Part shown: positions 2,932 to 37,866 of the stretch, one piece after another
Layout of the letters: each line of letters begins with the position of its first letter
Position numbering within the stretch: the first letter of the stretch is position 1
Assembly (NCBI GenBank): GCA_963729835.1
Contig: CAVSQF010000022.1
Coordinates: 296,150 to 360,149, forward strand
DNA length: 64,000 nucleotides
Direction of reading: 5' to 3'
Source: an uncultured delta proteobacterium
GTDB lineage: Bacteria > Desulfobacterota > Binatia > HRBIN30
Made by a program: the position numbers and the translations under genes
Notes under the pieces: model-generated
The model's input: only the letters and a program-made list of their open reading frames with translations
Database searches by the model: none
Told to the model about the DNA's origin: nothing

Positions 2932-4330
2932 CATGGAAAAATGTTTCCACGTGACAATATGGGGCGAAGGAAACAACCGAGTACGTCCGATGGCTTTGCG
3001 GCTGTTGCTCGGGGCCACGCTGGCGGCGGCAATCGTGTCATTTGCGGGCACCGAGGCCAGGGCGGTCCCGAGCTTTGCGCGGCAAACGGGGCTGGCCTGT
3101 TCCTCGTGTCACACGACGTTTCCCGAGCTCAACGCCTTCGGGCGTGCGTTCAAGATGCACGGGTATTCCGCGCTTGGAATGAAGGAGCTCGAAGAAACTG
3201 GCAGTGACAAGACGCCACCGTTGACGATCAATCGGGCCTTTCCTTTGTCGGTGATGTTCCAGACATCGATCACCCGAACCAATCAGGCACAACCTGGAAC
3301 ACAGAATGGCAACGTCGAGTTCCCGCAGCAGATCAGCCTCTTTCTCGCCGGGGAGATCACGCCCCACATCGGTACGTTCCTGCAGGCGACCTACGACGGG
3401 CAGAGCGACCACTTCACGCTCGACAACACCGATATCCGATTCGTCAACGATGCCCAGATCAACGGGAAGGAACTGCTCTATGGCCTCACCTTGAATAACA
3501 ACCCGACGGTGGAGGATCCCTGGCACAGCACGCCGGCCTGGGGCTTCCCGTTCGCGGCGTCAGACACCGCACCGTCGCCCGCCGCGAGCGCGCTTGTGGA
3601 CGGGGCGCTGGCGCAGCAGGTGGCAGGGGCAGGCAGCTACGCCCTCTGGAACAGGCATCTCTATGCCAACGTGGCGGTGTACCGGACCGCGAAGATCGGG
3701 AACCCCCAGCCACCGCCGGGAAACAGCAGCGGTACGATCCGGGATGTCGCGCCCTATTGGCGGCTCGCGTGGCAGCAGAACTGGGGAGCCAACTACCTCG
3801 AGCTAGGCACCTTTGGGATGTTCGCTCAAATGTTTCCCGACTTGAAGGATGCCGACGGTAACCCGATCAACTCTGCCGGCACCGACAAGTTCACCGATCT
3901 GGCCTTCGACACCCAATACGAGCGCCCGCTCGGCAAGGATTTCATCTCGGCGCACGCAACCTACATTTATGAGAACCAGCAGCTTGACGCTACGCAAGGC
4001 GCCGGCGCCTCGGCCCGGCGCAACGACAAGTTGCACACCTTCCGCCTCGATGGCATTTACCACTGGCGCGAGCGCCTGGCGCTGGCACTCGGCTACTTCC
4101 TCACGCGCGGGACGAACGACGCAACGTTCTACTCAAGCAGCATCAACGGCAGCCCGGACAGCGACGGCGTGCGGACCGAGATTAGCTATTTCCCGTGGCA
4201 AAACGTGAGGCTGTCTCTCCAGTACACGGTGTACACGGAGTTCGACGGCCGCAGCCATAACTTCGACGGCAGCGGTCGTGACGCGGTCGACAACAACACG
4301 CTCTACGCACTGCTGTGGCTGATGTACTAA
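2932..4330 (+). CDS. cyc2: Cyc2-like fused monoheme cytochrome c / outer-membrane beta-barrel (candidate Fe(II) oxidase or EET porin-cytochrome)
   Basis: Strong SD AAGAGGAGG 5 nt before ATG at 2932 (alternative ATG at 2989). Signal peptide MALRLLLGATLAAAIVSFAGTEARA. A single CxxCH (CSSCH) lies 10 residues into the mature protein. The following ~430 aa is amphipathic and beta-rich and ends in aromatic residues (LWLMY), typical of beta-barrel OMPs. Size and architecture match Cyc2. Confidence 0.65.
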
Positions 4331-4352
4331 AACCGAGGAGCCCGCAGGCATC

Positions 4353-4820
4353 ATGACGTGGTTCGGGCGCGTACCCAGGATTGCATTCCTGGCGTTCGTG
4401 GCAGTTGCGGGATCAACCGCGCGTGCGGACTCCGATGCAGACGCTGCCTTGCGCCAGGAGATTGGCGAGCTGAAGTACGCGGTGCAACAGCTCGGGGCGC
4501 GAGTCGAAAGCCTGGAGCAACGCCTCGCCGGGCGGCCCGCACCGACTCCGCAGCAAACCATCGAGGGCACCGCGCGGAAGGAATCGCCGCCACCTACGGC
4601 CCCGGGCGGCACAACTCAGGAGCGCTGGAGACGCCTCACGCGTGGGATGAGTGTGGAGCAGGTCGAGGCGCTCCTGGGCCACCCGCAACGCACCGTGGAC
4701 ATGAGCCCGAAGACAATCTGGTATTACTCGTATGAGGGCGTCGGCAACGGCTCCGTCGTCTTCATAAAGGACGGTGGGGTGATCGATTGGCAGAGTCCTC
4801 CGTTCGGTACGTGGTGGTAA
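4353..4820 (+). CDS. BamE/SmpA-OmlA-like secreted protein with coiled-coil segment
   Basis: Signal peptide (AFLAFVAVAGSTARA), coiled-coil EIGELKYAVQQLGARVESLEQRL. C-terminal block GMSVEQVEALLGHPQ...WYYSYEG...VVFIKDGGV resembles the SmpA_OmlA fold. Confidence 0.5.
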   Translation: MTWFGRVPRIAFLAFVAVAGSTARADSDADAALRQEIGELKYAVQQLGARVESLEQRLAGRPAPTPQQTIEGTARKESPPPTAPGGTTQERWRRLTRGMSVEQVEALLGHPQRTVDMSPKTIWYYSYEGVGNGSVVFIKDGGVIDWQSPPFGTWW

Positions 4821-4906
4821 CGGCGTATTGACACGTGCGCCGAAAAGATGTCTCGATCAACGGACAGCATGTCCTGAGATGTAAGGATTCAGGAAGGAGC
4901 ACACCA

Positions 4907-5275
4907 ATGCGAGGGTTTCGGTTATCCTTATGCGCACTCATTGCAGCAAGTTCGCTCACGGCGATCCGGGCGCGCGCCGACGATACGGCGATGGCCAAGG
5001 CGCGCGAGAACTACATGAGCTACTGCACGAAGTGCCACGGCGAGCAGGGGAAGGGTGACGGTCCCGGCGCCGCCATGCTCAACCCCAAGCCGCGCGATTA
5101 CACCGATTGCAAAACGATGCAGAAAAAGCCGGACGAAGAACTCTTCAAGGTCATTAACGAAGGCGGCGAGGCCGCCGGCATGTCGGCGGACATGCAGCCC
5201 TGGGGTGGCACGCTGTCCGACCAGGAGATTCACGACCTCGTGAAGTTCATTCGCGGCTTCTGCAAGCCGTCCTGA
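4907..5275 (+). CDS. class I monoheme c-type cytochrome (periplasmic electron carrier)
   Basis: RBS AGGAAGGAG before ATG 4907. Signal peptide MRGFRLSLCALIAASSLTAIRARA, heme motif CTKCH and methionine-rich distal region (GMSADMQPWGG). Confidence 0.8.
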   Translation: MRGFRLSLCALIAASSLTAIRARADDTAMAKARENYMSYCTKCHGEQGKGDGPGAAMLNPKPRDYTDCKTMQKKPDEELFKVINEGGEAAGMSADMQPWGGTLSDQEIHDLVKFIRGFCKPS

Positions 5276-5298
5276 ACGGATTGGTCGGCACGGGTTCA

Positions 5299-7227
5299 AT
5301 GGCCGACAAGGTCCGGGCGGTGATCCGCCCGCTGACGTGGTTCCGCGACAACGTGCCGTGCGTTGTGGCCTGTCCGGTGAAGACCGACGCGGGGCGGTAC
5401 GTGCAGCTCATCGGTGCGGGGCGCTACGAAGAGGCGTACGCGGTTGCCCGCTCGCCGAATCCGATCGCGTCAATTTGCGGGCGCACGTGTGGCGCGCCTT
5501 GTGAAGATGCCTGCCGGCGCGGCTCGATCGACGCGCCGGTGGCGATTCGGCCGCTGAAACGCTTCGTCACCGAACGGTTCGGGCCGGAGTCATTCAAGCC
5601 GATGGCGGTGGACGCGATTCCGAAAACGACGCGGGCATGCATTCAGAGCACGACGCCAGGACATCTGGAAGCAATGATGCCCCGGCGGGGGACACGGGCC
5701 AAAGTTGCCGTGATCGGTGCAGGACCCGCCGGCATGGCGTGCGCGCATGACCTTGCCGTCATGGGGTACCAAGTGACGGTGTTCGAGGCCATGGAACACG
5801 GCGGCGGGATGATGCGCTACGGCATCCCGGAGTATCGCCTGCCGCGCGAGGTCATCGACCGGCAGGTTGCTGAGATTCGCAGCCTGGGTGTCGAGTTCAT
5901 CTTCAGCCGCCCGCTCGGTGCAGATTTCGGTATTCGGGAGATCCGAGCGGCCGGGTACGCGGCTGTGTTTCTGGCCGTCGGTGCCGGTCAGGGACGCGAC
6001 CTGGCCATTGAAGGGCACGACGCGGACGGTGTCGTCAAAGCGATCGACTTCCTCTTAAACGTGAACCGTGGCTACCGCGTCGATGTCGGCGGCCGCGTCG
6101 TGGTGGTTGGAGGAGGCCTGGTCGCACTGGATGCCGCCCGCACGGCGGTGCGCGTGTTGCTCAGCGGCGCGGAACGCGCGGCGGAGGAGTTGGGCCGCCT
6201 GATCGGCACGGAAGTCCGTGTCGCTCTCGACGCGGCACGCGAGGCGCGGCGGCGCGGCGCCCTGGACGTCTCGGTGGTCAGCTTGGAGCAGCTCGAGGAA
6301 ATGCCCGCCATGCGCTCCGTGCAAGGGCGCGAGGAGATGGAGATCACGCACGGCGAAGGCATCGAGTTCATCCCCGGCTGGGGCCCGAAACGGATCGCGA
6401 GCGCAAACGGGCGTGCAACCGGCATCGAGCTGATTCGCTGCGCCCGCGTGTTCGACGACCAGGGCCGCTTCAATCCGTCGTTTATCCCCGGCAGCGAACG
6501 GATCGTGCCGGCGGACACGATTCTGCTCGCCATCGGGCAGCGGTCGGACTACAGCTTCCTGCGCCCCGAAGATGGCGTCGAACTCACGCCGAACGGACTG
6601 ATCAAAGTCGACCCGCAAACGCTGGCGACGACGGGCCAGGGGATCTTTGCCGGGGGCGACGGTGCGTTTCCCCCAAGCTTGCTCATCACCGCCGCCGAAC
6701 ACGGGAAGCGCGCCGCCGCCTCCGTCGATGCGTACCTCAAGGGCGCACGCCCCCGGCCGGCCATGCGGGTCGTGGCCGAGTTGCTGCCGCTCGAGAGCTG
6801 CCGCATGCCGGAGCGCTACGAGCAACTCACACGACACATCCCGGTCGTGCCGGTGGACCGACGCACGGGCATCACGGAGGTGGAGGAGAGTTACAGTGAG
6901 GCCGAGGCGCGGCAGCAAGCCGACCGCTGCCTCTCCTGTCACATCCACCCGATCTACAACCGCGACCTGTGCATTCTGTGCGCCCGCTGCGCCGACATCT
7001 GCCCGGAGAATTGCATCAGCTTCGTGCCGGCCGAGACCCTGGCACTCACTGGGAGTGATCAGGCAACCGTGGCCGCCCTGGCGCCAGCCGATCGGCCGCA
7101 TACGGCGTATCTCTACGCCGAGGACCGGTGCATCCGTTGCGCCTTGTGCGCCATCCGTTGCCCGACCGGGGCGATTACGATGGAGCGCTTCCAGTTCGAG
7201 GAGGTGGCCGATGGTGCTGCCGGTTGA
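5299..7227 (+). CDS. GltD-like NAD(P)H-dependent FAD oxidoreductase with N-terminal Fe-S cluster domain and C-terminal 2x[4Fe-4S] ferredoxin domain
   Basis: N-terminal Cys clusters (CVVACPV, CGRTCGAPCEDAC). Dinucleotide folds VAVIGAGPAGMACAH and VVVVGGGLVALD, plus GIFAGGD. C-terminus CLSCHIHPIYNRDLCILCARCADICP...CIRCALCAIRCPTGA. Start taken at ATG 5299 (track starts at TTG 5281). Confidence 0.75.
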   Translation: MADKVRAVIRPLTWFRDNVPCVVACPVKTDAGRYVQLIGAGRYEEAYAVARSPNPIASICGRTCGAPCEDACRRGSIDAPVAIRPLKRFVTERFGPESFKPMAVDAIPKTTRACIQSTTPGHLEAMMPRRGTRAKVAVIGAGPAGMACAHDLAVMGYQVTVFEAMEHGGGMMRYGIPEYRLPREVIDRQVAEIRSLGVEFIFSRPLGADFGIREIRAAGYAAVFLAVGAGQGRDLAIEGHDADGVVKAIDFLLNVNRGYRVDVGGRVVVVGGGLVALDAARTAVRVLLSGAERAAEELGRLIGTEVRVALDAAREARRRGALDVSVVSLEQLEEMPAMRSVQGREEMEITHGEGIEFIPGWGPKRIASANGRATGIELIRCARVFDDQGRFNPSFIPGSERIVPADTILLAIGQRSDYSFLRPEDGVELTPNGLIKVDPQTLATTGQGIFAGGDGAFPPSLLITAAEHGKRAAASVDAYLKGARPRPAMRVVAELLPLESCRMPERYEQLTRHIPVVPVDRRTGITEVEESYSEAEARQQADRCLSCHIHPIYNRDLCILCARCADICPENCISFVPAETLALTGSDQATVAALAPADRPHTAYLYAEDRCIRCALCAIRCPTGAITMERFQFEEVADGAAG

Positions 7228-7675
7228 GCCCGAGCGTCGTCGCGTTTTGCGCTGGATCGGACAATGGTCGGTGGTTGCGGCCATCGTCACCCAACTCGGC
7301 GGTGTGGTGCGGGCGTTCGTGCCCCGCGTGCTCTACGAGCCGTCGAAGAAATTCAAGCTCGGCAAACCCTCTGAGTATCCCGAGGGCGTCACGTTTGTGC
7401 CGACACACCGGCTGTTCGTGATGCGTGAGCGCAACCAGTTTCACGTGATCTCGGCCGTGTGCACCCACCTGGGGTGTACCGTGGAATGGAAAGACAGGCT
7501 GACCGAGTTTGATTGCCCTTGTCACGGCAGCAAGTTCCACAACGACGGCACGCCCTTCGCCGGCCCCGCGCCGCGGCCGCTGACATGGTACCCACTGAGT
7601 GTATCGGGCGACGGCTTCCTGGTCGTAGATTCCGCCAAGTCGGTACCGTCGACGTATCGCCTTGCGGTTGCGTGA
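7211..7675 (+). CDS. Rieske [2Fe-2S] iron-sulfur protein of bc-type complex
   Basis: TM helix WSVVAAIVTQLGGVV, Rieske boxes CTHLGC and CPCHGS. Start ATG 7211 overlaps the end of the upstream flavoprotein gene by 17 nt (translational coupling). Confidence 0.85.
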   Translation: MVLPVEPERRRVLRWIGQWSVVAAIVTQLGGVVRAFVPRVLYEPSKKFKLGKPSEYPEGVTFVPTHRLFVMRERNQFHVISAVCTHLGCTVEWKDRLTEFDCPCHGSKFHNDGTPFAGPAPRPLTWYPLSVSGDGFLVVDSAKSVPSTYRLAVA

Positions 7676-7684
7676 GAGCGTGTC

Positions 7685-8989
7685 ATGGGGGCGCAGCTGA
7701 CCCGATTCTGGCGTTGGATCACCTGGACGTGGAGCCCGGCAAGCGAGCGCGAAGCCAGCAGCGCGATTGTCGAGAACCTCTGGCTGCATTGGTTTCCGGC
7801 GAAAGTCGCCGAAGACAGCTTCACATGGAGTTACTCTCTCTGGCTCGGAGCGATTGCGGCCTTTCTGTTCCTCATCCTGACCGTGACCGGCGTGCTGCTG
7901 ATGTTTTTCTACGTCCCCTCGACCCAGCAGGCGTACTGGAGCATCAAAGACATCCACTACGTGGTCGGGTTCGGGTGGGTGCTGCGCAACCAGCATCGCT
8001 GGGCGGCCCACTTGATGGTGTTGGTGGTCTTTCTCCACATGCTGCGTGTTTTCTTCACGGGCGCCTACCGGGCGCAGCGCAGCGTGAACTGGCTCGTCGG
8101 TTTGGCGTTGCTGCTGCTGACCTTGTTCCTTTCCTTCACGGGCTATCTGTTGCCGTGGGACCAGCTGGCGTTTTGGGCAGTCACCGTCGGCACGAACATC
8201 GCCAAGGAAGCACCGTTGGTGGGGGCGGGGCTGCGGTTCGTCCTGCTCGGGGGAACGGAGATCGGCCAAAGTACGCTCGTGCGCTTCTACGTGCTGCACG
8301 TTGTCGTCTTGCCCGCGGCCGTGTTGGTGCTGTTCGCGTACCATATGTGGCGTATACGCCGCGATGGCGGCATGGCCGTCACCGACCCGGCTGCAACGGG
8401 CACCGCTCCCGTTGGTGGTGGGGCTCCGGTTGCTGGGAAGACCTACTCACTCTTCGGCATCACACCGGGGACCACCCTGGAGGTGCGTGCGGCCGGACCG
8501 CGCGATGAGGAGGACTCGGCTTTTTCATCACCCCACATGCTGCGGCGGCTGATGCTCGTCTTTCTCGGCGTGTTCACAATCACCATCGTTCTCAGTGTGC
8601 TTTCCGGAGCACCGCTGGAAGAGCCGGCGAATCCGGCGCTGACGCCGAACCCGGCGAAGGCGCCGTGGTATTTCTTGTGGCTGCAGGAGCTGGTGGCGAT
8701 TACCACGATTCGGTTGGGCGGGTTGACCCTCAGTGGGGGTCTTGTCGGTGGCATTTTGGTGCCCGGGATCCTGCTAGCGGCGGCGGTCGTCTGGCCATTT
8801 CTTGATGGCAGCCCGCTCCAGGTCATCGGCAAATGGTTCCCGCGGGAGCGCCGCGTGCAGAATACGGTGCTTGGGATCATCGCCTTCGCGATTCTGATCC
8901 TGGTGTTGATCGGCATGCTCATGCGCGGGCCGTATTGGCAGCTCTTCTGGCCCTGGCAAGCGTGGCCGGAGTTGCCACGCAGGTTGTAG
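7685..8989 (+). CDS. cytochrome b (b6-like N-domain fused to subunit IV-like C-domain)
   Basis: 434 aa polytopic protein with conserved cyt b blocks (WGAIAAFLFLILTVTGVLLMFFY, RNQHRWAAHLMVLVVFLHMLRVFF, LPWDQLAFWAVTVGTNI) and heme-ligating His pairs. Confidence 0.9.
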   Translation: MGAQLTRFWRWITWTWSPASEREASSAIVENLWLHWFPAKVAEDSFTWSYSLWLGAIAAFLFLILTVTGVLLMFFYVPSTQQAYWSIKDIHYVVGFGWVLRNQHRWAAHLMVLVVFLHMLRVFFTGAYRAQRSVNWLVGLALLLLTLFLSFTGYLLPWDQLAFWAVTVGTNIAKEAPLVGAGLRFVLLGGTEIGQSTLVRFYVLHVVVLPAAVLVLFAYHMWRIRRDGGMAVTDPAATGTAPVGGGAPVAGKTYSLFGITPGTTLEVRAAGPRDEEDSAFSSPHMLRRLMLVFLGVFTITIVLSVLSGAPLEEPANPALTPNPAKAPWYFLWLQELVAITTIRLGGLTLSGGLVGGILVPGILLAAAVVWPFLDGSPLQVIGKWFPRERRVQNTVLGIIAFAILILVLIGMLMRGPYWQLFWPWQAWPELPRRL

Positions 8990-9000
8990 CGGGTCGGACG

Positions 9001-10209
9001 ATGACCGGTCGCTTCCTTCACAACCGAGATTTCTGGCCGCTGCTGATCGCGTCGGTCGCTGCTTTAGTGGTCGTGCTCATCGTGGCATTCCGTGAGTACA
9101 CGCCGGAATGGCAGCACCGTATGGAGGCCTTTCGCAGTTATCTGCGCGGGCGCGGCGCGTATGATGCGGCGTCGACCGTGCCCAATACCGTGCAGCAGAT
9201 CTGGCTGCCGGCACTGGATCGGGTCGATCGTTGCATCAGCTGTCATGTCAACTACGATGCGTCGATTTCGGCGCTGCCCGATTTGCCGCCGCTGCACCGG
9301 TCGCATCCGGACCTGCCCTATATGGCGAAGCACCCCTTTCCCACCTTCGGGTGCACCGCGTGCCACGGCGGCCAAGGCTACGCCCTCGATCAGGCCGGGG
9401 CGCACGGCCTCGTGGAGCACTGGGATGATCCGCTGCTGAGCACCGCGCTGGCAACGCAGTACGGCCTCACGCGTGCGCAGCTGATGGAAACCAAGTGCAA
9501 CACCTGTCACCGGCGCGATGATTCGACGGCCGGAATGGATCTCATCAACATGGCCAAGGAGATCTTCGACAAGAAACGCTGCGTGTCGTGCCACGGCTTG
9601 CAGGGCGGCGGCGGGCTGGCCTCGTCGGACCTGACCTACGACGGCGACGTCAACCCCGAGCTTCTGGACTTTTCCAACGTGTCGGGTCCGAAGACGAGCT
9701 TGAACTGGGAGATCCAGCATTTCAAGAGTCCGCAACAGGTCGTGACACGCAGCGGCATGCCGAACTACCGGTTGAACGATGAGCAGGCGCGGGCGTTGGC
9801 GCTGCTGATGTTGAGTTGGCAGCGGGTCAGCTTCCCGCCCGAGTACCTCCCGGCAGCACGGCGGCGCCCACCGGCCGTGCTGCCGATTGTGCGCGAGGTG
9901 GCGTATCCCCCGCCGGCGACGACGGATGCGGGAAAGGAAGGCCGCTATGTGTTCAGCAATCGAGGTTGCAACACCTGCCATCGGGTCGGGGGCGGGAATT
10001 TGATTGGTCCTGATTTGGCAGCGGTCACGCAGCGGCGCAACGACAAGTGGCTCGGCACTTGGCTGAAAGATCCGGCGGCGGTGGTGGCGAAGGACCCGGC
10101 ACTGCAAACCTGGTCGCACGAGTTCGGCGACATCATCATGCCCAACCAGAATCTCAACGACGAGGAGATCGCAGGGCTGATCGCCTACATGCACGAGTTC
10201 CCAGAGTGA
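9001..10209 (+). CDS. membrane-anchored pentaheme c-type cytochrome (c subunit of the bc complex)
   Basis: ATG 9001 lies 12 nt after the cyt b stop. N-terminal TM (WPLLIASVAALVVVLIVAF). Five CxxCH motifs: CISCH, CTACH, CNTCH, CVSCH, CNTCH. Confidence 0.85.
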   Translation: MTGRFLHNRDFWPLLIASVAALVVVLIVAFREYTPEWQHRMEAFRSYLRGRGAYDAASTVPNTVQQIWLPALDRVDRCISCHVNYDASISALPDLPPLHRSHPDLPYMAKHPFPTFGCTACHGGQGYALDQAGAHGLVEHWDDPLLSTALATQYGLTRAQLMETKCNTCHRRDDSTAGMDLINMAKEIFDKKRCVSCHGLQGGGGLASSDLTYDGDVNPELLDFSNVSGPKTSLNWEIQHFKSPQQVVTRSGMPNYRLNDEQARALALLMLSWQRVSFPPEYLPAARRRPPAVLPIVREVAYPPPATTDAGKEGRYVFSNRGCNTCHRVGGGNLIGPDLAAVTQRRNDKWLGTWLKDPAAVVAKDPALQTWSHEFGDIIMPNQNLNDEEIAGLIAYMHEFPE

Positions 10210-10925: not shown

Positions 10926-11906
10926 ATGCGCCTTCTCGTTGCGGGCGCGGGGGGAATCGGCTCGATCTTCGGTGCCTTCTTGCAACGTGCGGGCGACGAG
11001 GTGACGCTGCTGGGGCGTCCCGCCCACCTCGCGCGCGTGGCCGCCGATGGCCTGCATCTGGACGGCCTTTGGGGCGAACATGTTGTGACAGGATTCCACT
11101 TGGTCGAAGACGCCGCCCGCCTGAGCGGCCAGTATGACGGCATCTTGGTCACCGCAAAATCCTATGACACGCAGGTCATTGCGGAAGCCGTCGCCCTGTT
11201 TCTCGCTCCCGGGGGAGTCATCATCTCTCTGCAGAACGGGCTGGGGAATGTCGAGCAATTCGTCGCGCGGGTCGGCCCGGCGCGTGTGCTCGGCGGACGG
11301 GTCATCTTCGGCGCGGAAGTCGTCGCCCCTGGGTGCGTACGCGTCACCGTGTACGCGGACCCCGTGCTCATCGGCCCGTGGGGTGCCGACCCAGATCCGC
11401 GCAGCACCGCGCAAGCGCAATGGTGGGCGAGTCATTTCGATGCGGCCGGCATCCCGAGCGCTGCGACCGACGACATCGCCGCCGCATTGTGGGGCAAGGT
11501 GCTGTACAATACCCCACTCAACCCGCTCAGCGCGCTGCTCGGTGTGCATTACGGGGCGCTCGCCGAGAACGGACACACCCGCGTCATCATGGACCAGGTC
11601 ATCGGCGAGACTTTCGCGGTGGCGACTGCCGAGGGGATCGTCCTGCCGTGGGCCTCTGCCGCGGAGTACCGCGCCACATTCTATGATCGTCTGGTGCCAT
11701 CGACGTTCCATCATCGCTCGTCAATGCTGCAAGACCTCGAGCGCGGCCGGCGGACCGAGATCGACGCCATCAACGGCGAGGTCTGGAAGCGTGGAGCGAC
11801 CTGCGATATCGCGACGCCCATCAACGAGCTGCTGACGCGTTTAGTGCACGCCCGCGAAGCGTTGCGCGCGCCGACCGGAGGTCTGACACCCCAAGTGAAG
11901 ACTTGA
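10926..11906 (+). CDS. panE: 2-dehydropantoate 2-reductase (ketopantoate reductase, ApbA/PanE family)
   Basis: MRLLVAGAGGIGSIFGAFL Rossmann N-terminus, LQNGLGN and ...ERGRRTEIDAINGEV blocks typical of the PanE/ApbA family. Confidence 0.8.
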   Translation: MRLLVAGAGGIGSIFGAFLQRAGDEVTLLGRPAHLARVAADGLHLDGLWGEHVVTGFHLVEDAARLSGQYDGILVTAKSYDTQVIAEAVALFLAPGGVIISLQNGLGNVEQFVARVGPARVLGGRVIFGAEVVAPGCVRVTVYADPVLIGPWGADPDPRSTAQAQWWASHFDAAGIPSAATDDIAAALWGKVLYNTPLNPLSALLGVHYGALAENGHTRVIMDQVIGETFAVATAEGIVLPWASAAEYRATFYDRLVPSTFHHRSSMLQDLERGRRTEIDAINGEVWKRGATCDIATPINELLTRLVHAREALRAPTGGLTPQVKT

Positions 11907-12262
11907 ATGAGACACAGAAGACGACCGTCTACGAACGTCCGTCGGCATGGCTGTTTCCATGGGCAATCCTGCCGGAGGTCGACTATCTGGCGCAGACGCA
12001 GTTGGGAGAGCGAGTGGCCGGGGCGTTTCTGGCCGATCTCGCCGAGGGAGCGTTCGTGGTCGAGTGGGGCGATGAGGTCGACCTCGACCGGGCGCACGAG
12101 TTGAACACGCGCTACCGGGCGCTACAGTTGGGCTTGGTGGACGCGGTGGTCATGGCGATCGCCGAGCGCCGGCACGCCGAGGCCATTGCCACGCTCGATC
12201 TCCGGCACTTCGGCGCCGTGCAGCTGCGGCGGCGGGTGAAACTCTTCCCCCGTGATCTGTAG
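11903..12262 (+). CDS. PIN-domain-like protein (VapC-like C-terminal half; N-terminus atypical)
   Basis: C-terminal LGLVDAVVMAIAERRHAEAIATLDLRHFGAV resembles the PIN domain fourth acidic/helix region. No cognate antitoxin is seen. Overlaps the panE stop. Confidence 0.4.
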   Translation: MNETQKTTVYERPSAWLFPWAILPEVDYLAQTQLGERVAGAFLADLAEGAFVVEWGDEVDLDRAHELNTRYRALQLGLVDAVVMAIAERRHAEAIATLDLRHFGAVQLRRRVKLFPRDL

Positions 12263-30709: not shown

Positions 30710-32687
30710 ATGGTACGAACTGGGCTGAAGGCGTGGGTGGTCGCGGGCGTGGTGGTGGTATCGCTGCTCGGATTGCGAGCCGGCAGCAGCGCGATCTCGC
30801 TCGACAGCGACGGCGACATGAAGTTGGGCGTGCGGACGTACGTCAACGCCCGAGTTGGGACGGAGGATACGCATGACGGTGTGATGACGACGCCCGTCAC
30901 CGATCCAACTACGGGCCAGTCCGTGACGACCTCGACCTCCGCGACCTTCCCACACTCGAGTCGCCGGCCATCTGCGGCAGAATCGTTTCTTCATCGAAGT
31001 CGAGCTGAACCACGACCTCGATCGGCTTGCGAATCAAGGCGTCGGCCCCTTGAGCCTCCTCAAAGAGTTGCCGTTCAAAGTGAAGGGGCTGGCGTACCAC
31101 TTCACGTTTCGCGGCGAGGGAGACGGTCTGTACGACTGGGGACCTTGGGAGTACAGCACGGCACAGCCGATCCAGGAATTGAGAACCACATCCCCCCCCA
31201 GCTCACTTGTCTACCGCCAAGGTCCCGGTGGGGCCCCCTTAGACTGCACCACTGACCCGCGCTGTGGCCGCCAAACTTTCATCGACGTCGCGGCAGAACG
31301 GGAGAAAATCCGCCGCCTCGGCACAGACCGGGAACGGCTGTTCCAAGCCTACGTCGAAGGGGATGTCGGGAATTTATTCGTGCGGGTGGGGCGGCAAATC
31401 CTCGCCTGGGGTGAAACGGACGCCTTCCGACTCCTCGATCAGATCAACCCGACCGACAGCAGCTTCGGAGGATTCCTCGTTCCCCTTGACGAACGGCGCC
31501 TCCCACTCGATATGCTCCTGGCCAACTACTACCTCGGTGATTACGGGCCGTTCACGGAGATGCATCTGGAAGGCTATGCGGCCATTGACAATAGCGTTTC
31601 GTACTATCCGGGCGGCAGCAGTGTCTCGCCGTGGGGGCTCCCGAGCGACACGGCACCGGGGAACGAGGTGGAGCACTTCCTCATCCGGCCTGCCCGGACC
31701 ATCAACAACACACGCGGCGGATTCCAGTTGAAGTTCAACGTCCTGGACGCCACGTTTGGCGTCGCGCATTATTACACGCACCCTGACATCGAGGCCCTGG
31801 ACTCCCACACAAATCCGTGGGACCCTAATGGCAGCGGCGCGAGGGGTTTGCTCACCGCCTTCGATGAGGGCCTCCCATGCCCGATTATGAGCGGCAACAG
31901 CTCACAGAGCGTGGTGATAGGTGAGGATTTCTCCAACCGTCATTGCGGTTATATGGTACACATGTATCACACGGCGCCGAAGATGCAGGTGACCGGCGCC
32001 TCGACAACGTTTGCTCTGCCGCAGTATTACAGCGTGTTTCGGAGTGAGTTCGCGTATTTCAAAGACGAGGCCCACTTCAGGCAGCGCCAGCTCGACCCCT
32101 TTATATACAATAACCCTTTCAACACCCCCGACCCTTTCCACCCAGGGAAGAACTACCCCCATCTTGCCACGGGAGGCCGGGATCTCGGAGACTCGCTCAA
32201 TGCCATGGTGGGCCTCGATAACAACCAGTGGATCCGGTTTCTGAACCCGAATCAAACCTTTTTCATCTCGACGCAGTTCTTCTACAAACACATTCTCGAC
32301 GCGGGGGACCACAACATCTGGAGCTTGGGCAAGAACGGTCAGCGGCTCCTCAACCCGAATCGCGAAGTCCTTCCACTCTATTTGACTGAGACGCCTAATG
32401 GAGGGCAGGCGGAACCTGTCTTCATCACCAACCCGGCGGACTCCTACCTGCAAACCCTGATGATCGGCACCGATTACCGGAGCGGTACAATCTCCCCCAG
32501 CCTGACGTTCTTCTACGACTGGGGCGGCGCTTTCGTTTATCAGCCGGCGATCACGTTCACCCATGATCCCTTCCGCTTCGCGATCGATTACAGCATAATC
32601 GACGCGCATATCTACAAGGGTGGCAGCGGCGTCAGCTTGCTCAAGGATCGGGACAACGTCCAGTTCCGCTTCGAGTATGTGATCTGA
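30710..32687 (+). CDS. DUF1302 family outer-membrane protein, interrupted by an apparent frameshift near 30930-30960
   Basis: Frame 1 gives signal peptide (MVRTGLKAWVVAGVVVVSLLGLRAGSSA). Frame 2 from ~30927 gives the DUF1302 body (...LFVRVGRQILAWGETDAFRLLDQINPTD...), ending FRFEYVI. No start codon with signal peptide exists in frame 2. Confidence 0.6.
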
Positions 32688-32958
32688 TTGGTGCGTCGTG
32701 CGTCCGCCGGGCAGGGGCAGCGACGGAATGCGCTCGCGGGTGATCCGTAGTGCATTCCAGTGAGTCGCGGTCGTGTCCGTCGACGCGTACAGACCCAAAG
32801 GCGACAGGGGGGTGAAGTCTGCTGAAAGACCGGGACAACGTGCAGTTCCGTCTGGAATATGTGATTTGATTTGTGGTAAATGCTGCGGGTCGCCTCCGGG
32901 GCACAGCGACCGCGTCGTGACTTTGCGTCAGAAGATCAGAAGAGAAGGGGAAGCGCGG

Positions 32959-33966
32959 GTGAGACATCTAGTGTGGGCTGCCACCGTGCTCTTGGCGAGT
33001 GCGAGGGCCGTACTGGCGGCCGAAACAGTACCGGCCGCACAGCTGCGGCAGAATTTGCTGTCGAGCTGCTTCGTCGATCTCAAGGAAGGGTGGGTCACCG
33101 CCGATCTCGGCCGTGTCTTCCATACCGTCGATGGGGCCAAGACGTGGGAGAAGCTGGCCGCGCGAGACCAGCGGTCATTCGTGGCGCTGAGTTGCCCGGA
33201 CAAGGGCCATCTGTGGGCCGCCGGGCAGGCGGGACGGATCGGGTACTCCACCGATGGCGCCCGTACCTGGACGATACAAACGAGCGGCACCGATCGCCAG
33301 CTTCTCGACATCGGGTTCGTGAATACGCAACGCGGCCTTGCCATCGGGGATTTCGGCACGATCCTGCGCACCGACGATGGTGGGGCAACCTGGACGAAAA
33401 TTCCGCTGCCCCGGGATATCAAGCTGCCGCCGGATGTTGCCGAGGTCGTCGATCCCGGCGATGTGGTTCTGTATGCGTTGGCTTTTCTGACCCCGGAGCA
33501 TGTGTGGGCGGTTGGTGAATTCGGGGTGATTGTGGAATCCACTGACGGGGGGCTGACGTGGCACTCGCAAGACAGCCGGACCCAAACGAGCCTCTTGGGG
33601 GTCTCTTTTGCCGATGAGCAACGCGGCTGGGCCGTTGGGCTCGAATCGACGTTGATCGCGACAACCGACGGCGGTACGACCTGGCGTAAACAGCAAATCG
33701 AAACGCCCAAGGGCTTTTCGCTCGCTCTGTATAACGTCGGGGTGCGCGGCAGCTACGGGTGGGCGATCGGCAATAGTGGATTCCTGCTTTCCAGCAAGGA
33801 TGCCGGGACGACCTGGCAGCTGGCCAAGGTCCCGGTAGAGATGGGCAGCAGCTGGTTTCGCGGTCTCTGGCTATTTCCGGACGGCCGTGGTTTTCTTGTC
33901 GGCTCACGCGGTCTGGTGCTCGCCACCGATCGCGACAGCTTCACACCAATGAAGCAGCTGTTCTGA
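32959..33966 (+). CDS. Ycf48-like BNR-repeat beta-propeller protein
   Basis: GTG start after RBS GAAGGGGA; signal peptide. Repeated T/S-x-D-G-G-x-T-W units (TVDGAKTW, STDGARTW, TDDGGATW, STDGGLTW, TTDGGTTW, KDAGTTW). Confidence 0.8.
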   Translation: MRHLVWAATVLLASARAVLAAETVPAAQLRQNLLSSCFVDLKEGWVTADLGRVFHTVDGAKTWEKLAARDQRSFVALSCPDKGHLWAAGQAGRIGYSTDGARTWTIQTSGTDRQLLDIGFVNTQRGLAIGDFGTILRTDDGGATWTKIPLPRDIKLPPDVAEVVDPGDVVLYALAFLTPEHVWAVGEFGVIVESTDGGLTWHSQDSRTQTSLLGVSFADEQRGWAVGLESTLIATTDGGTTWRKQQIETPKGFSLALYNVGVRGSYGWAIGNSGFLLSSKDAGTTWQLAKVPVEMGSSWFRGLWLFPDGRGFLVGSRGLVLATDRDSFTPMKQLF

Positions 33967-33994
33967 TGGGGTTGTTCAAGGAGGTCCCGAGGAA

Positions 33995-36517
33995 ATGATT
34001 CCGCGGCGATGGATTGAAGCCTACCTCCATTTCTTGCTGCGCAATCGTCGCTCGGTTGCGGTCGTCGTGGCGTTGATGACGCTGTTCTTCGCGGCGGCCC
34101 TCCGGAACACTCGGCTGCACACGGACTTCTTCGATTTCTATCCGCGCCGGCACCCGTACATCCAGTTCTACAACGAGTTCCGCAAGATGTTCGGGACCGC
34201 CAACATCATGAGCGTGATCTTGGAGGTCAAGCACGGCGACATCTACAACCCGGCAACCCTCCAGAAGCTCGATCGCATCACCAAGTTCATGATCAACACC
34301 AAGGGAGTGGTGCCGTACCAAATTCTGTCGATCGCGCACCCGGCGGTGAACAGCGCCACGGTCGTGCAGGGTGCCGTGCAGATCGTCCCGGTGTTCTACC
34401 CCGGCGTCCCGCAAACGCAGGAGGATGCGGAGCGCGTACGTTTTGCGGTGTACGCCAATCCCAACATCCGTGGCATCTACGTTTCTCACGACGATACGGC
34501 GGCGGTCGTGAACGTCGGCTTCTGGGAAGAGGCGCTCGACTTCCAATACCTCGATAAGCGCATGATGGAACTCAAACATGCCGAGGAGGACGCGAATCAC
34601 ACCATCTACATTACCGGGTTTCCGTGGCTGTACACCTCTGTGTTGCAGTACGCCTACGAGCTGCCGCTCGTCTTCGGCTTTACGCTGTTCGCGCTGGCTT
34701 TCCTGTTGTTCACCTATTTTCGCACCTGGACGGGGATCTGGGTGCCGATATTCTCGGGCGTCCTATCCGGGATCTGGGGCCTGGCGATCGCCGCCCTGCT
34801 GGGATTCAACGTCGATCCACTCGTGTTAGTGATCCCGATCTTCCTAACGGCACGTACGCTCAGCCATTCAGTGCAATCCATGGACCGCTACCACGAGGAG
34901 TACTACCGCTTGCAGGACAAACACCAGGCGATCGTGGTCTCGTACTCCCATCTTTTCCCGCCGGCCATTGCTTCCATCTTTGCCGACGGCATGGCGCTGC
35001 TGATCGTTGCCGTCGGGCCGATCCCGTTGATCCAGAAAGTCGCGATCTTCGCGAGCTTCTGGATCGTGTCTATGTTCATCAGCGTCGTGACGCTCCATCC
35101 GATCATTCTGTCGTACATCAATCCGCCGCATCATGCGGAGGCGCATGCCCAAGAAGGGCCGGACCGCGTGCACATCGGGGTCGCGACGGCGATACTGGCA
35201 GTGGCGGTCGCTGCGGCGATTACGGCCACGGAGTTGGCGCTCATACCGGGCCGCGGGGCGGTGCTTGCCGTCTGCCCGATCATCGCCTGGTACTGGTTCA
35301 CCTATTCGGAGCGGATTTATCCCGCCTTCACCGAGCTCGTCATCAACGCCAGCGTCGGGTATCGACGTTGGCTCGTGATTGCGCTGACGATTGCGCTCTA
35401 TTTATTGCTGCCCGTTTGGGGGTGGACCTTGAAGGTCGGGGATATGACGCCGGGTGCCGCGCTGCTATTTCCCGATCACCCCTACAACGTTGCCTACCGG
35501 AAACTGAACGACAAATTCCTCGGTGGCAGCCAGCTCATCGTCATCGCGGACACGATGAAGCCCGATGGGGTGAAAGGCTTCGCCGCCTTGACGGCCATGG
35601 AGGAGTTTGCCGATCACATGGCGACGGCGCAGGGCGCCAGCGGGTCCATCACCATCGTCGACATCGTGAAGCAGCTCGAGCGCCTGCAACACGAAGGCGA
35701 TCCGAAATGGGGCTTGGTGCCGGTCAATCCCAAGGAGATCGGGCAGGTCATCTACAGCTTCCAGGCAAGAGCCGCCGTGACCTCGCTGAATCTGTTCATG
35801 GATGCCAGCGCGCGCTACGGCTCGATCATCACGCTGTTTCGCGAGCACTCGCACGACACCATCATGCACTCGATTGCGCTCGCCAAGGCGTTCGCGAACC
35901 AGTATACGGGGGGCGAAGTCCAGTTCCGTTTCGCGGGCGGTCTGTTCGGCGTCTTGGCTGCCGTCAACGAGGCGGTGGAGAACTCGTACTGGATTAACCT
36001 CGGGATGATCTTCTTCATCGTCGCCTTCTGCTTGTACCTCACGTACGGGTCGTGGTACGCAGCGGGAATCCTGATGATTCCAGTGGTGCTGTCGCAATTG
36101 GCTGCAGAAGCCCTGATGGTGCTGATGCACATCGATTTGAATGTAAACTCCCTACCGATCGCGGCCGCCGGTGCCGGGGTGGGTGTCGACTACGGCATTT
36201 ATCATTTCAGCCGGATGGTGGATGCCTACGATGAAGTCGGCAAGCTCGACGAGGCGGTGGACTATGCCACGGCGACCACCGGCAAGGCGATTATTTTCAC
36301 CGCCTCCACCATGATGGCGGGCACCATCTTCTTCTGGCTCTCGAACCTGAAGTTCCAGGCCGAAATGGGGTTCTTGCTGGCATTGCTGATGCTCTTCAAT
36401 ACATTCGGAGGCTTGGTTGTGGTTCCGGCCTTCGTGAAAGTCCTCCGGCCTTCCTTCCTGACGGGCCGCAAACCGAAGACCGCCGCGCCGGACATCCGAG
36501 CCGCGGCGGCAAGCTGA
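33995..36517 (+). CDS. RND-superfamily exporter (MMPL/HpnN-like, 12 TM with two periplasmic loops)
   Basis: 840 aa. Two homologous halves, each with a TM bundle (e.g. GIWGLAIAALLGFNVDPLVLVIPIFLTARTLSHSVQ and GILMIPVVLSQLAAEALMVLMHIDLNVNS). Confidence 0.85.
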   Translation: MIPRRWIEAYLHFLLRNRRSVAVVVALMTLFFAAALRNTRLHTDFFDFYPRRHPYIQFYNEFRKMFGTANIMSVILEVKHGDIYNPATLQKLDRITKFMINTKGVVPYQILSIAHPAVNSATVVQGAVQIVPVFYPGVPQTQEDAERVRFAVYANPNIRGIYVSHDDTAAVVNVGFWEEALDFQYLDKRMMELKHAEEDANHTIYITGFPWLYTSVLQYAYELPLVFGFTLFALAFLLFTYFRTWTGIWVPIFSGVLSGIWGLAIAALLGFNVDPLVLVIPIFLTARTLSHSVQSMDRYHEEYYRLQDKHQAIVVSYSHLFPPAIASIFADGMALLIVAVGPIPLIQKVAIFASFWIVSMFISVVTLHPIILSYINPPHHAEAHAQEGPDRVHIGVATAILAVAVAAAITATELALIPGRGAVLAVCPIIAWYWFTYSERIYPAFTELVINASVGYRRWLVIALTIALYLLLPVWGWTLKVGDMTPGAALLFPDHPYNVAYRKLNDKFLGGSQLIVIADTMKPDGVKGFAALTAMEEFADHMATAQGASGSITIVDIVKQLERLQHEGDPKWGLVPVNPKEIGQVIYSFQARAAVTSLNLFMDASARYGSIITLFREHSHDTIMHSIALAKAFANQYTGGEVQFRFAGGLFGVLAAVNEAVENSYWINLGMIFFIVAFCLYLTYGSWYAAGILMIPVVLSQLAAEALMVLMHIDLNVNSLPIAAAGAGVGVDYGIYHFSRMVDAYDEVGKLDEAVDYATATTGKAIIFTASTMMAGTIFFWLSNLKFQAEMGFLLALLMLFNTFGGLVVVPAFVKVLRPSFLTGRKPKTAAPDIRAAAAS

Positions 36518-36555
36518 GACACGCGTACGATTAAGTGATGAGGAGGTTTTCGATT

Positions 36556-37866
36556 ATGATGTTCGCAAGACGCGCCCGTATGCATTGGGTCGTGGGCACT
36601 CTAGCTTTGGCGGCCATGTTCGTTGCCGGCTCAGCCCGCGCCGAGGAAGCCAGCAAGGACAAACCCTGGGTCCTCGACAGCAACAACTGGCAGCTCGGTA
36701 AGGATCTGCTGCCGGAGCCAGTACTCAACCGCGTGAAAAGCGGCGAATACCATTTCAAGGTCGTCCCGGTTGACCCAGATAAATTCAAGCAAAACTACTC
36801 CAAGAAGTTCTGGGAGGCGAGTGAGGCGAATGCCGGCAAGTACGGCATCGACACGGCCACCTGCGGCTTGAAAGACCTCAAGACCGGCAAGATTCCGGAC
36901 TTCTACTTCGGCTACCCGTTCCCGAAGATCGACCCGAAAGATAAGGACGCGGGCTGTGAGATGGCCTGGAATTTCATGGCCTCCAGTGAGCAGATCAACG
37001 GGTTCGGGGCAACGTTTACCTTGAACGGCATCGACGCGACAGGCGAGTTCAAGCGCATCAAACTCTGGATGCACATCCTTACCTTCATCGGCCGGTCGGC
37101 CGGCCCGATTCCCAACCCTGAGCACCTGCGTCACACGAGTGTGTCGAGCGTGACCGAGCCACAGGACGTCGACGGCGTCGGCGGCCTGACCAAAACCCCG
37201 AATGACTGGACCTCGGAGGATCAGTTTTGGGCGTACGTGCCGTCCACGCGTCGCGTGCGCCGCGTCAATGCCGCCAGCCGCTCCGACCCCGTGAACGGCC
37301 TGGACATCTTCGGTGACGACGTGAACTGTTACTCCGGCAAGACCGAGTTATACAAGTGGAAGCTGGTTGGTGAAGGCACCGTCCTGGCTGGCGTGCTCAG
37401 TCCGGAGCCGATCATACAAAAGCAGGTCAGCCCAACGCGGTGGGACGTTCCCATCCCGTACTTCAAAGGCGTCTACGAAACGGCGGGCGCGAAGGGAGCG
37501 CCGTGGCTCATCGTGGACAACCTGGTCATGATCCCGCGCCCGGTCTGGATTCTCGAGGCCCAGGCCGATGACCCGTACTACAACTTCGGGAAGGTCATCA
37601 TCTACATGGATAAGGACATGTACCGCATGTACTGGAAGCTGGTGCACAACCGCGCCGGTGAGTACTTCTATAATGCCATGTGCGCCTGGCACTTTTCGAG
37701 GTCCGAGGATGGGACGTTTACGGCCCCGGCACCGAACATGGTCGTGGGCGTGAACGACAAAACCAACCGCGCGGCCATCGGCGGACGCTACAGCTCACAG
37801 TTCATCGAGAATAAGTTCGACGACGACTACTTCACCCTGCACCACCTGACGCATATGTCTGACTGA
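36556..37866 (+). CDS. DUF1329 family periplasmic protein (LolA-like)
   Basis: SD AGGAGG 9 nt before ATG 36556, signal peptide. 443-aa range; blocks YFGYPFP, WAYVPSTRRVRR, YNFGKVIIYMDKDMYRMYWKLVHNRAGEYFYN. Confidence 0.75.
   Translation: MMFARRARMHWVVGTLALAAMFVAGSARAEEASKDKPWVLDSNNWQLGKDLLPEPVLNRVKSGEYHFKVVPVDPDKFKQNYSKKFWEASEANAGKYGIDTATCGLKDLKTGKIPDFYFGYPFPKIDPKDKDAGCEMAWNFMASSEQINGFGATFTLNGIDATGEFKRIKLWMHILTFIGRSAGPIPNPEHLRHTSVSSVTEPQDVDGVGGLTKTPNDWTSEDQFWAYVPSTRRVRRVNAASRSDPVNGLDIFGDDVNCYSGKTELYKWKLVGEGTVLAGVLSPEPIIQKQVSPTRWDVPIPYFKGVYETAGAKGAPWLIVDNLVMIPRPVWILEAQADDPYYNFGKVIIYMDKDMYRMYWKLVHNRAGEYFYNAMCAWHFSRSEDGTFTAPAPNMVVGVNDKTNRAAIGGRYSSQFIENKFDDDYFTLHHLTHMSD

Follow-up and report, generated by a model that had tools for sequence, protein, structure and literature searches.

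The window analysed here, 64,000 nucleotides of contig CAVSQF010000022.1 from an uncultured delta proteobacterium (GenBank assembly GCA_963729835.1; GTDB lineage Desulfobacterota, Binatia, HRBIN30), carries a compact block of seven genes that unites a Cyc2-family cytochrome-porin, a predicted outer-membrane protein, with a Rieske/cytochrome b (bc) complex of the NAD(P)-linked type found in anaerobic ammonium-oxidizing (anammox) bacteria. The block also encodes a BamE-domain protein, a soluble cytochrome c and a membrane-anchored multihaem cytochrome c (Table 1). Both halves are of known kinds; their conserved union is apparently undescribed. No description of an operon combining Cyc2 with an NAD(P)-linked bc complex, the pairing first noticed in an earlier note on this DNA made from the sequence alone, was found in the open-access full-text literature, a result that is no proof of novelty. 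We lean towards the view that the block encodes one electron-transfer unit, which would join an extracellular metal couple, the quinone pool and NAD(P) by way of a bifurcating bc complex.

A Cyc2-family cytochrome-porin

Cyc2 proteins have been defined by a signal peptide, a single CxxCH motif, a length of at least 365 aa and a 16-strand OprO/OprP-like porin, together with two flanking motifs: AxPxFAR[Q/K][T/Y], described as exclusive to Cyc2, shortly before CxxCH, and PxL four residues after it (Keffer 2021). The product of the first gene agrees with this description by all sequence and fold criteria applied and is, on that basis, assigned to the Cyc2 family, as the earlier note had proposed. 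Its N-terminus (MALRLLLGATLAAAIVSFAGTEARA) resembles a signal peptide by inspection, and the motif region that follows reads EARAVPSFARQTGLACSSCHTTFPEL. Within it, AVPSFARQT, the one occurrence of this motif across the window's six reading frames, stands three residues before CSSCH, which is the single CxxCH of the whole protein and is followed by the PxL element (CSSCH-TTF-PEL). An AlphaFold2 (AF2) model with a predicted local distance difference test (pLDDT) score of 78, of low confidence at about residues 22–35 and 75–82, contains 16 long strands and has OprP as its best structural match; the chain ends in ...LWLMY. The publicly recorded form has 465 aa, whereas an alternative ATG at 2990 would give 446 aa, the length of a 92% identical homologue (P0001), and both forms exceed the minimum length. 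Membership in the family rests on the published motifs and the predicted fold because searches against Pfam, NCBIfam and PDB sequences gave no match, Pfam and NCBIfam holding no Cyc2 model.

Homologues are numerous, with more than 7800 matches (90% clustering) and 3876 clusters at 50% identity. The window protein probably belongs to Cyc2 cluster 3, since its relatives come from Acidobacteriota, Nitrospirota-like and ‘Deltaproteobacteria’ genomes, as reported around Leptospirillum Cyt572, and since the same taxa surround the cluster 3 Cyc2 of Ca. Mariimomonas. The function of cluster 3 is the least certain, and distant Cyc2 homologues may have other functions (Keffer 2021). The four Cyc2 proteins tested to date were all assayed as Fe(II) oxidases, and isoforms of Cyc2 from Acidithiobacillus have been linked to the reduction of Fe(III).

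A Rieske/cytochrome b complex of the NAD(P)-linked type

The flavoprotein of the block begins with a GltD/NfnB-like two-cluster domain, continues with Rossmann domains for FAD and NAD(P), and ends in a ferredoxin domain of the 2x[4Fe-4S] type. It matches NCBIfam PRK12771 (1.5e-123), and its best solved relative in a PDB search is NfnABC (9bov/9bp5, 3e-81), the structure likewise found for Kuste4570 (Hauser 2025). The best PDB matches of the Rieske protein are Kuste4569 (9rk4, 3e-28, 43% identity) and Kustd1480 (9rk3, 6e-23, 42%), ahead of all b6f/bc1 Rieske proteins. These belong to the Rieske/cytochrome b complexes Kuste4569–4574 and Kustd1480–1485 of Kuenenia stuttgartiensis, which carry an NAD(P) oxidoreductase (Kartal 2013; de Almeida 2016; Hauser 2025) and fall into cytochrome b ‘subfamily G’, associated with NAD(P)-binding Fe-S oxidoreductases (Dibrova 2013, 2017).

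The cytochrome b of the window matches b6 (7e-43) and subunit IV (4e-6) in the PDB and conserves all four haem histidines (H104, H118, H205 and H220). Trp53 replaces, in the alignment, Cys35 of spinach b6, and haem cn is therefore predicted to be missing. In the motif at the quinol oxidation (Qo) site, NPAKAPWYFL (window 8650–8700, residues ~320–335), APWY stands in place of PEWY, so that the conserved Qo glutamate is missing as well; a further histidine, His35, lies in ENLWLHWFPAKV. The pentahaem cytochrome c consists of a four-haem domain and a C-terminal class I domain, with Pfam Cytochrom_C, Cytochrom_c3_2 and MtrC-like matches. Identity of the cytochrome b with ExtP or ExtQ (NCBIfam NF040969/NF040970) was considered and rejected, the scores being 257.4 and 72.4 bits against cut-offs of 290 and 150; judged by these scores, the protein represents a subfamily related to ExtP/ExtQ and is no equivalog of either.

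Anammox-type loci for comparison were found by scanning metagenomes with the Kuste4569 domain sequence read off a PDB alignment. The Brocadiales-type loci retrieved (Rieske 64–84% identical to Kuste4569, G+C 0.38–0.46) have the published layout of Rieske protein, flavoprotein, cytochrome b, subunit IV, six-haem cytochrome c and eight-haem HAO-like protein, and no cyc2 gene occurs within 10 kb of them. The gene-by-gene comparison suggested in the earlier note gave a counterpart for every subunit of the window complex: identity to the Brocadiales-type proteins amounts to 41–45% for the Rieske protein, 34–36% over the full length of the flavoprotein, 45–49% and 31–35% for the b6 and subunit IV parts of cytochrome b, respectively, and 25–38%, in partial alignments, between the haem c protein and the hexahaem subunit. 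One Brocadiales-type locus (L104, 9881–12657) encodes a Rieske protein, cytochrome b, subunit IV and haem c, with no flavoprotein match between the Rieske and cytochrome b genes, and may be a flavoprotein-less variant inside the anammox-type family.

The two most telling characters are found at the level of residues. His43 of the anammox-type cytochrome b, which lies in ISNVWLHLHPAKV, aligns column for column with the histidine of window VENLWLH(35)WFPAKV, an equivalence drawn through the cytochrome b of loci whose Rieske protein is 80–84% identical to Kuste4569, standing in for the Kuenenia sequence; in Kuste4571, His43 is a proposed ligand of an extra haem b at the dimer interface. The Qo motif NPAKAPWYFL, in turn, is common to the window, other Binatia, Acidobacteriota and anammox subunit IV. 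Among 34 cytochrome b genes near cyc2, the histidine at the position of His35 and APWY are always present where a flavoprotein gene is present, whereas cytochromes b accompanied by neither the flavoprotein nor another member of the set have LDEPIPG in place of the histidine region and PEWY or PEWN at Qo. Two loci scored as lacking the flavoprotein, L034 and L075, yet keep the histidine; the L075 contig ends just upstream of the Rieske gene.

These two shared derived characters tie the window complex to the anammox complexes. By most of the sequence comparisons made, the bc part belongs to the NAD(P)-linked anammox-type family, the exceptions being the haem cn site and the HAO-like subunit. The assignment made in the earlier note thus stands on the Rieske, flavoprotein, His35 and APWY comparisons. 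Dibrova et al. had already noted that subfamily G cytochromes b co-occur with NAD(P)-binding Fe-S proteins in several phyla beyond anammox, and placed a long-cytochrome b clade, G', in ‘large conserved operons ... of an unknown function’, with an outer-membrane partner unmentioned.

Conservation of the linkage between cyc2 and bc genes

Cyc2 relatives were surveyed in at least 588 genomes, one per species, and ~16 kb of flanking sequence was examined in the closest 80; the hosts are metagenome-assembled genomes (MAGs), with taxon labels as deposited. Rieske and cytochrome b genes lie beside cyc2, always on the same strand, in 29 of these 80 species genomes, and in 19 of the 29 the flavoprotein gene is present too. 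Fewer than one such case would be expected by chance, given a flank of this length in a genome of several Mb, and chance juxtaposition is accordingly rejected because the linkage is conserved; the survey, which the earlier note had called for, thus bears out the pairing seen in the window. The linkage is found in 25 of the 42 Acidobacteriota, in both Binatia (including the truncated L004), in two of three Ignavibacteria and in one of eight Bacteroidota, and in none of the 13 Gemmatimonadota or the five Gammaproteobacteria.

The complete set of seven genes in the same order, with different flanks, recurs in a ‘Deltaproteobacteria’/Binatia MAG (L001, GCA_016195705.1), whose Cyc2 is 68% identical to that of the window, and the same seven-gene order, again with different flanks, is seen in L004 and L005, all within the group of Binatia-type contigs L001–L005. 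A second Binatia clade (flavoprotein 61% identical) has the order cyc2, cytochrome c, flavoprotein, Rieske, cytochrome b and haem c, with no BamE-like gene. The set is carried by 18 Acidobacteriota genomes in two gene orders, with cyc2 at either end and a cupredoxin as the carrier; the conserved members are the cupredoxin, flavoprotein, Rieske protein, b6, subunit IV, a multihaem cytochrome c of ~700 aa and a protein with Ig-like and cytochrome c domains. No further gene, oxidase included, is conserved beside the Acidobacteriota set, which therefore looks self-contained. In a crude neighbour-joining tree of Cyc2, flavoprotein-linked members fall into at least three clades and those linked only to Rieske/cytochrome b genes into at least four more. 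A Terriglobales MAG (L034, 9899–16684) has kept cyc2, the cupredoxin, Rieske, cytochrome b and multihaem c genes and has no flavoprotein gene; its Cyc2 nests within a flavoprotein-linked clade, and the locus looks like a natural flavoprotein-loss variant.

The Acidobacteriota flavoprotein is abundant in metagenomes, where a single 90% cluster has 1,485 members; the named matches are Ca. Sulfotelmatobacter and Terriglobales. Iron-metabolism genes were stated to be absent in the paper describing these MAGs, and Ca. Sulfotelmatobacter and other described Acidobacteriota hosts are aerobic or facultatively anaerobic organotrophs.

The BamE-domain protein and the soluble carriers

The earlier note had described the second gene product as a BamE-like lipoprotein. 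The BamE part of this description holds, PF04355 scoring 25.7 bits against a cut-off of 23.2 in a protein built of a signal peptide, a coiled-coil-like stretch, a Pro-rich linker and the BamE/SmpA_OmlA domain. The lipoprotein part does not, because the protein contains zero cysteines and hence no lipobox cysteine; a canonical BamE outer-membrane assembly lipoprotein was rejected on the same ground. Homologues lie directly 3' of cyc2 in L001–L005, in the Gammaproteobacteria MAGs L007 (~11884–12090) and L011 (~11401–11877) and in the Zetaproteobacteria-labelled MAG L031 (3850–4347), the last three having no bc genes near the cyc2/BamE pair. The window protein and the L031 homologue have the C-terminal motif W-(Q/E)-x-PPF-x-W in common. 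The protein may be a dedicated partner of Cyc2, acting in barrel assembly or as a periplasmic plug or adaptor.

The soluble cytochrome c matches Pfam Cytochrome_CBB3 (7e-12) and Cytochrom_C (6e-9). Leptospirillum cytochrome 579 (NCBIfam NF033864) was rejected as its identity, the score of 42.7 bits against a cut-off of 280 reflecting generic class I cytochrome c similarity only. The slot that the BamE-like protein and cytochrome c fill in Binatia is occupied in Acidobacteriota by a cupredoxin (plastocyanin/azurin family) fused to a CarboxypepD_reg-like domain and encoded immediately upstream of the flavoprotein gene, as at L048 (11441–12061) and 14 other Acidobacteriota loci. Iron oxidizers are divided between those that use rusticyanin as the carrier, which are acidophilic, and those that use cytochrome c/Cyc1, which are neutrophilic. 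The contrast between the Acidobacteriota, with their cupredoxin, and the Binatia, with cytochrome c, recalls this division by analogy.

Proposed mechanism and its alternatives

Starting from the observed gene content, family memberships, conserved linkage and shared derived residues, we infer complex formation, cofactors, bifurcation, substrate and direction of flow as parts of the following scheme. Three pools would be joined: at Cyc2, a metal couple that is soluble and extracellular, most probably Fe(II)/Fe(III); the quinone of the membrane; and the NAD(P) of the cytoplasm. At the core, a b6f-like Rieske/cytochrome b complex would oxidize quinol at the APWY Qo site and split the electrons two ways. 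The high-potential branch would lead from the Rieske protein through the anchored pentahaem cytochrome c and the soluble cytochrome c (the cupredoxin in Acidobacteriota) to the haem of Cyc2, and the low-potential branch through haems bL and bH, an additional haem b coordinated by the His35 residues of the two monomers, four Fe-S clusters and FAD to NAD(P)+. The net, reversible reaction would be 2 QH2 + NAD(P)+ + 2 acceptor(ox) <-> 2 Q + NAD(P)H + 2 acceptor(red), with Cyc2 and the soluble carrier taking the place of the HAO-like octahaem protein at the outer end of the high-potential branch. The scheme follows quinol bifurcation, the only mechanistic model available for complexes of the anammox type (Kartal 2013, as summarised in Hauser 2025), whereby, according to that summary, quinol at Qo supplies both electrons; the potentials measured for the Kuenenia Rieske proteins, +303 and +335 mV, fit and thereby support such a scheme.

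Assuming menaquinone and a membrane potential of ~150 mV, we estimate that outward (forward) flow, which would make NAD(P)H, needs an acceptor above ~+320 mV. Fe(III) in acid peat, chelated Fe(III), Mn(III/IV) and a cytochrome c pool drained by an oxidase would qualify by this estimate, and ferrihydrite at pH 7 would not. Inward flow, in which Fe(II) and NAD(P)H would together reduce quinone, is estimated to be feasible, without evident energetic gain for an aerobe with complex I and cytochrome oxidase. The two directions have roughly equal odds, since the Fe(II)-oxidase assays stand against the Acidithiobacillus isoforms implicated in Fe(III) reduction and the occurrence of the Geobacter ext cluster in a reducer. 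The most specific form of the scheme, a reversible three-way redox coupler in which extracellular Fe(III)/Fe(II) would serve, via Cyc2, as the high-potential pole of a quinol bifurcation yielding NAD(P)H, is put forward tentatively, as possible rather than probable.

Several considerations weigh against a bifurcating unit of this kind. The locus and its relatives are known here from genes alone and the hosts only as MAGs, and the 64-kb window contains neither autotrophy or carbon-fixation genes nor oxidase genes. Even for the anammox complexes, bifurcation is as yet an unproven model, and de Almeida et al. proposed another role for them, electron transfer from hydrazine to menaquinone. Because the CxGG haem cn site of the anammox complexes is absent from the window complex, chemistry on the negative (N) side of the membrane may differ between the two. 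The tested Cyc2 proteins, having been assayed as Fe(II) oxidases, favour inward flow, which would consume NAD(P)H with no obvious energetic benefit, by our estimate. Finally, about 10 further genomes pair cyc2 with an ordinary PEWY-type Rieske/cytochrome b complex; together with the loss in L034, this means that the flavoprotein is not essential to the partnership between Cyc2 and the bc complex, which is the more general theme, with the NAD(P) branch as an addition.

The same flavoprotein-free pairings, which occur in Acidobacteriota, Ignavibacteria and Bacteroidota, and the retention of the rest of the set in L034 speak for a simpler arrangement on the rus and pet model of Acidithiobacillus ferrooxidans, whereby Cyc2 would pass electrons from Fe(II) to the carrier, the bc complex would be an ordinary quinol:cytochrome c reductase, working forward or reversed by the proton-motive force, and the flavoprotein would be an accessory NAD(P)H input or a regulatory add-on. 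The cupredoxin of acid-soil Acidobacteriota and the cytochrome c of Binatia would then mirror the rusticyanin and Cyc1 of known iron oxidizers. We nevertheless regard this arrangement as rather unlikely: the flavoprotein-linked cytochromes b have the derived His35 and APWY in common with the anammox enzymes, which argues for a specialized N-side exit rather than a loose accessory, haem cn is missing, and no terminal oxidase is conserved nearby. The identity of the extracellular partner poses a separate question. If it were not iron but some other small redox-active solute, for instance Mn(II)/Mn(III), an oxyanion of a metalloid, or an analogue of humics or quinones, the module would be a reductase/oxidase system, periplasmic or extracellular, for that solute, as the caution of Keffer 2021 allows and as the candidacy of Cyc2 for a component of Mn(II) oxidation in Ca. 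Manganitrophus could suggest. Geobacter extHIJKLMNOPQS, which joins an OprP-like porin, cytochromes c and Rieske/cytochrome b proteins, affects selenite and tellurite reduction, the window cytochrome b scores just below the cut-off of the ExtP model, and in L001 the module is preceded, ~1.9 kb away and on the opposite strand, by a gene for a multicopper oxidase. However, each of the four Cyc2 proteins studied biochemically acts on iron, the window protein retains an intact conserved motif around its haem site, and the window holds no rhodanese, selenoprotein or ExtI-type gene, so that a partner other than iron appears improbable to us.

The earlier note had suggested that the operon could be a complete reverse-electron-transport chain supporting lithoautotrophy, in which electrons from Fe(II) or an electrode would travel via Cyc2 and cytochrome c through the bc complex uphill to NAD(P)+. 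The block does encode every part that electrons would need to travel from the outer membrane to an NAD(P) site in the cytoplasm, Cyc2 proteins are Fe(II) oxidases where tested, and the uphill petI operon of A. ferrooxidans, with cytochrome c and the NAD-binding SdrA beside bc1 genes, offers a partial precedent. Yet in the published bifurcation scheme the c-type chain and NAD(P)+ both accept electrons from quinol, and iron electrons could not pass simply to NAD(P)+ because the two sit at the ends of a fork whose stem is quinol. The direct path would have to climb from ~+200 to +300 mV to -320 mV, that is, ~0.55 V, from the positive (P) to the N side against the membrane potential, and the gene content suggests no proton-translocating subunit that could drive it. 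Neither the direct reduction of NAD(P)+ with Fe(II) electrons nor an operon that by itself solves the reverse-electron-transport problem withstands these arguments from energetics and topology, for which reason direct flow was rejected; with carbon-fixation genes absent from the window and the described related hosts organotrophic, a lithoautotrophic chain of this kind is very improbable.

Gene layout and surroundings

As the earlier note had stated, the seven open reading frames are consecutive and co-directional (Table 1), with intergenic gaps of, in order, 22, 86, 23, -17, 9 and 11 nt, in a window of ~63% G+C. Co-transcription of all seven is suggested by this spacing alone. A promoter and terminator scan gave results no better than shuffled sequence, and an Rfam search returned no match. 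The start of the Rieske gene, preceded by GAGGAGG, overlaps the end of the flavoprotein gene by 17 nt, and GGAAGGAG stands upstream of the ATG of the soluble cytochrome c gene. A longer reading frame for the pentahaem cytochrome c, from ATG 8833, overlaps the cytochrome b gene; because the haem c homologue of L001, with 409 aa, begins 12 nt past the cytochrome b stop, the start of the window gene most likely lies at 9001.

Table 1. Genes of the cyc2-bc block, with positions in the window.
Product	Position	Strand	Basis
Cyc2-family fused monohaem cytochrome-porin, 465 aa	2933-4330	+	motifs, single CSSCH, predicted fold
BamE-domain secreted protein, 155 aa	4353-4820	+	Pfam PF04355
Periplasmic monohaem class I cytochrome c, 122 aa, CTKCH	4907-5275	+	Pfam Cytochrome_CBB3, Cytochrom_C
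Cytoplasmic NAD(P)-binding Fe-S flavoprotein, 642 aa	5299-7227	+	Pfam Fer4_20, Pyr_redox_2, Fer4_7 (2x[4Fe-4S])
Membrane-anchored Rieske [2Fe-2S] protein, 154 aa	7211-7675	+	Pfam Rieske PF00355; CTHLGC ... CPCHGS
Cytochrome b, 434 aa, b6-like and subunit IV-like domains fused	7685-8989	+	Pfam Cytochrome_B, Cytochrom_B_C
Pentahaem cytochrome c, 402 aa, N-terminal hydrophobic membrane anchor	9001-10209	+	five CxxCH

The genes that flank the module in the window are unrelated to it and not conserved. Upstream, on the minus strand (1–2734), lie a radical SAM protein gene (1775–2734) and an aldehyde:ferredoxin oxidoreductase gene truncated at the start of the window, beyond which a ThiS-like gene follows, as judged from the matching public contig L086; downstream lie genes for an acyltransferase and PanE. 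Farther on, at 31050–37866, a trio of DUF1302, MMPL/RND-like and DUF1329/LolA-like genes is apparently unrelated to the module, and the remainder of the window consists of housekeeping genes. In L001, a three-domain multicopper oxidase gene and two unannotated genes, absent from the window, lie directly upstream of the cyc2 module on the minus strand (6695–9643); this neighbourhood could reflect a metal-oxidation theme or be a coincidence.

Significance

Cyc2 serves as a marker gene for microbial iron oxidation, and most of its homologues are found in organisms without known iron metabolism. Through their conserved linkage to one particular complex of the inner membrane, such ‘orphan’ Cyc2 genes acquire a cellular context that can be tested. 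Discussion of NAD(P)-linked Rieske/cytochrome b complexes, for its part, has to date centred almost exclusively on anammox bacteria; the family described here consists of non-anammox relatives that keep two telling characters while their periplasmic end module is swapped, and so offers both a natural experiment on the high-potential branch and relatives in which the hypothesis of an NAD(P)H-generating bc complex can be tested. If the module handles iron, iron cycling by abundant peat Acidobacteriota has been under-counted. If it further acts as a coupler, an unrecognised iron respiration or iron-dependent supply of reductant would exist in Binatia and in abundant peat Acidobacteriota annotated as free of iron metabolism.

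Comparison with known systems

The window protein resembles the known Cyc2 proteins (A. ferrooxidans Cyc2, Leptospirillum Cyt572, Mariprofundus Cyc2PV-1 and Ca. Mariimomonas Cyc2) in its signal peptide, single CxxCH, AxPxFARQT and PxL motifs, length of ~450 aa and predicted 16-strand barrel with OprP as the best structural match, and differs in the linkage of its gene to a Rieske/cytochrome b complex. In A. ferrooxidans, cyc2 belongs to the rus operon, separate from the pet (bc1) operon, and the iron pathway genes of Leptospirillum are unclustered; McAllister 2020 describes cyc2 with no bc complex linked to it, its gene context being undiscussed there.

Among systems that combine similar parts, the conserved extHIJKLMNOPQS cluster of Geobacter sulfurreducens brings together c-type cytochromes, a porin of the outer membrane that resembles OprP, the Rieske protein ExtO and a cytochrome b divided into ExtP and ExtQ; the window cytochrome b is near to ExtP and ExtQ, yet below both NCBIfam cut-offs. 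The porin of this cluster, ExtI, is haem-free, however, a flavoprotein is lacking, and the other members include a rhodanese, a selenoprotein and cytochromes with 10 and 12 haems. The rus and petI (cycA1-sdrA1-petA1B1C1) operons of A. ferrooxidans provide a Rieske/cytochrome b complex and, at the outer membrane, Cyc2; as the soluble carrier of high potential, rusticyanin or cytochrome c4 corresponds to the cupredoxin or cytochrome c of the present module family, and an NAD-binding protein is encoded within the bc operon. There, however, the parts are distributed over two operons rather than gathered in one block, the complex is a classical bc1 with cytochrome c1 rather than a b6f-like complex with a multihaem cytochrome c, SdrA is a short-chain dehydrogenase rather than an Fe-S flavoprotein, and the rus operon carries a cytochrome oxidase, of which the window module has none.

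The anammox complexes share with the window complex the type of Rieske protein, an NfnABC-like flavoprotein with four Fe-S sites, a four-histidine b6-like cytochrome b with the N-terminal WLH histidine, the NPAKAPWYFL Qo motif and a multihaem cytochrome c in place of cytochrome f/c1, although subunit identity is only 25–49%. They differ in having WCMGG, a CxGG site for haem cn, where the window, other Binatia and Acidobacteriota have no cysteine; in gene order, with the Rieske gene before the flavoprotein gene rather than after it; and in the haem c subunits, with six or eight haems rather than five. The b6 and subunit IV parts, fused in the window protein, are separate in the anammox-type loci and also in the Acidobacteriota relatives. 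Where the anammox complex has an HAO-like octahaem protein (Kuste4574), the window has no eight-haem gene, and its module offers Cyc2, the BamE-domain protein and cytochrome c instead.

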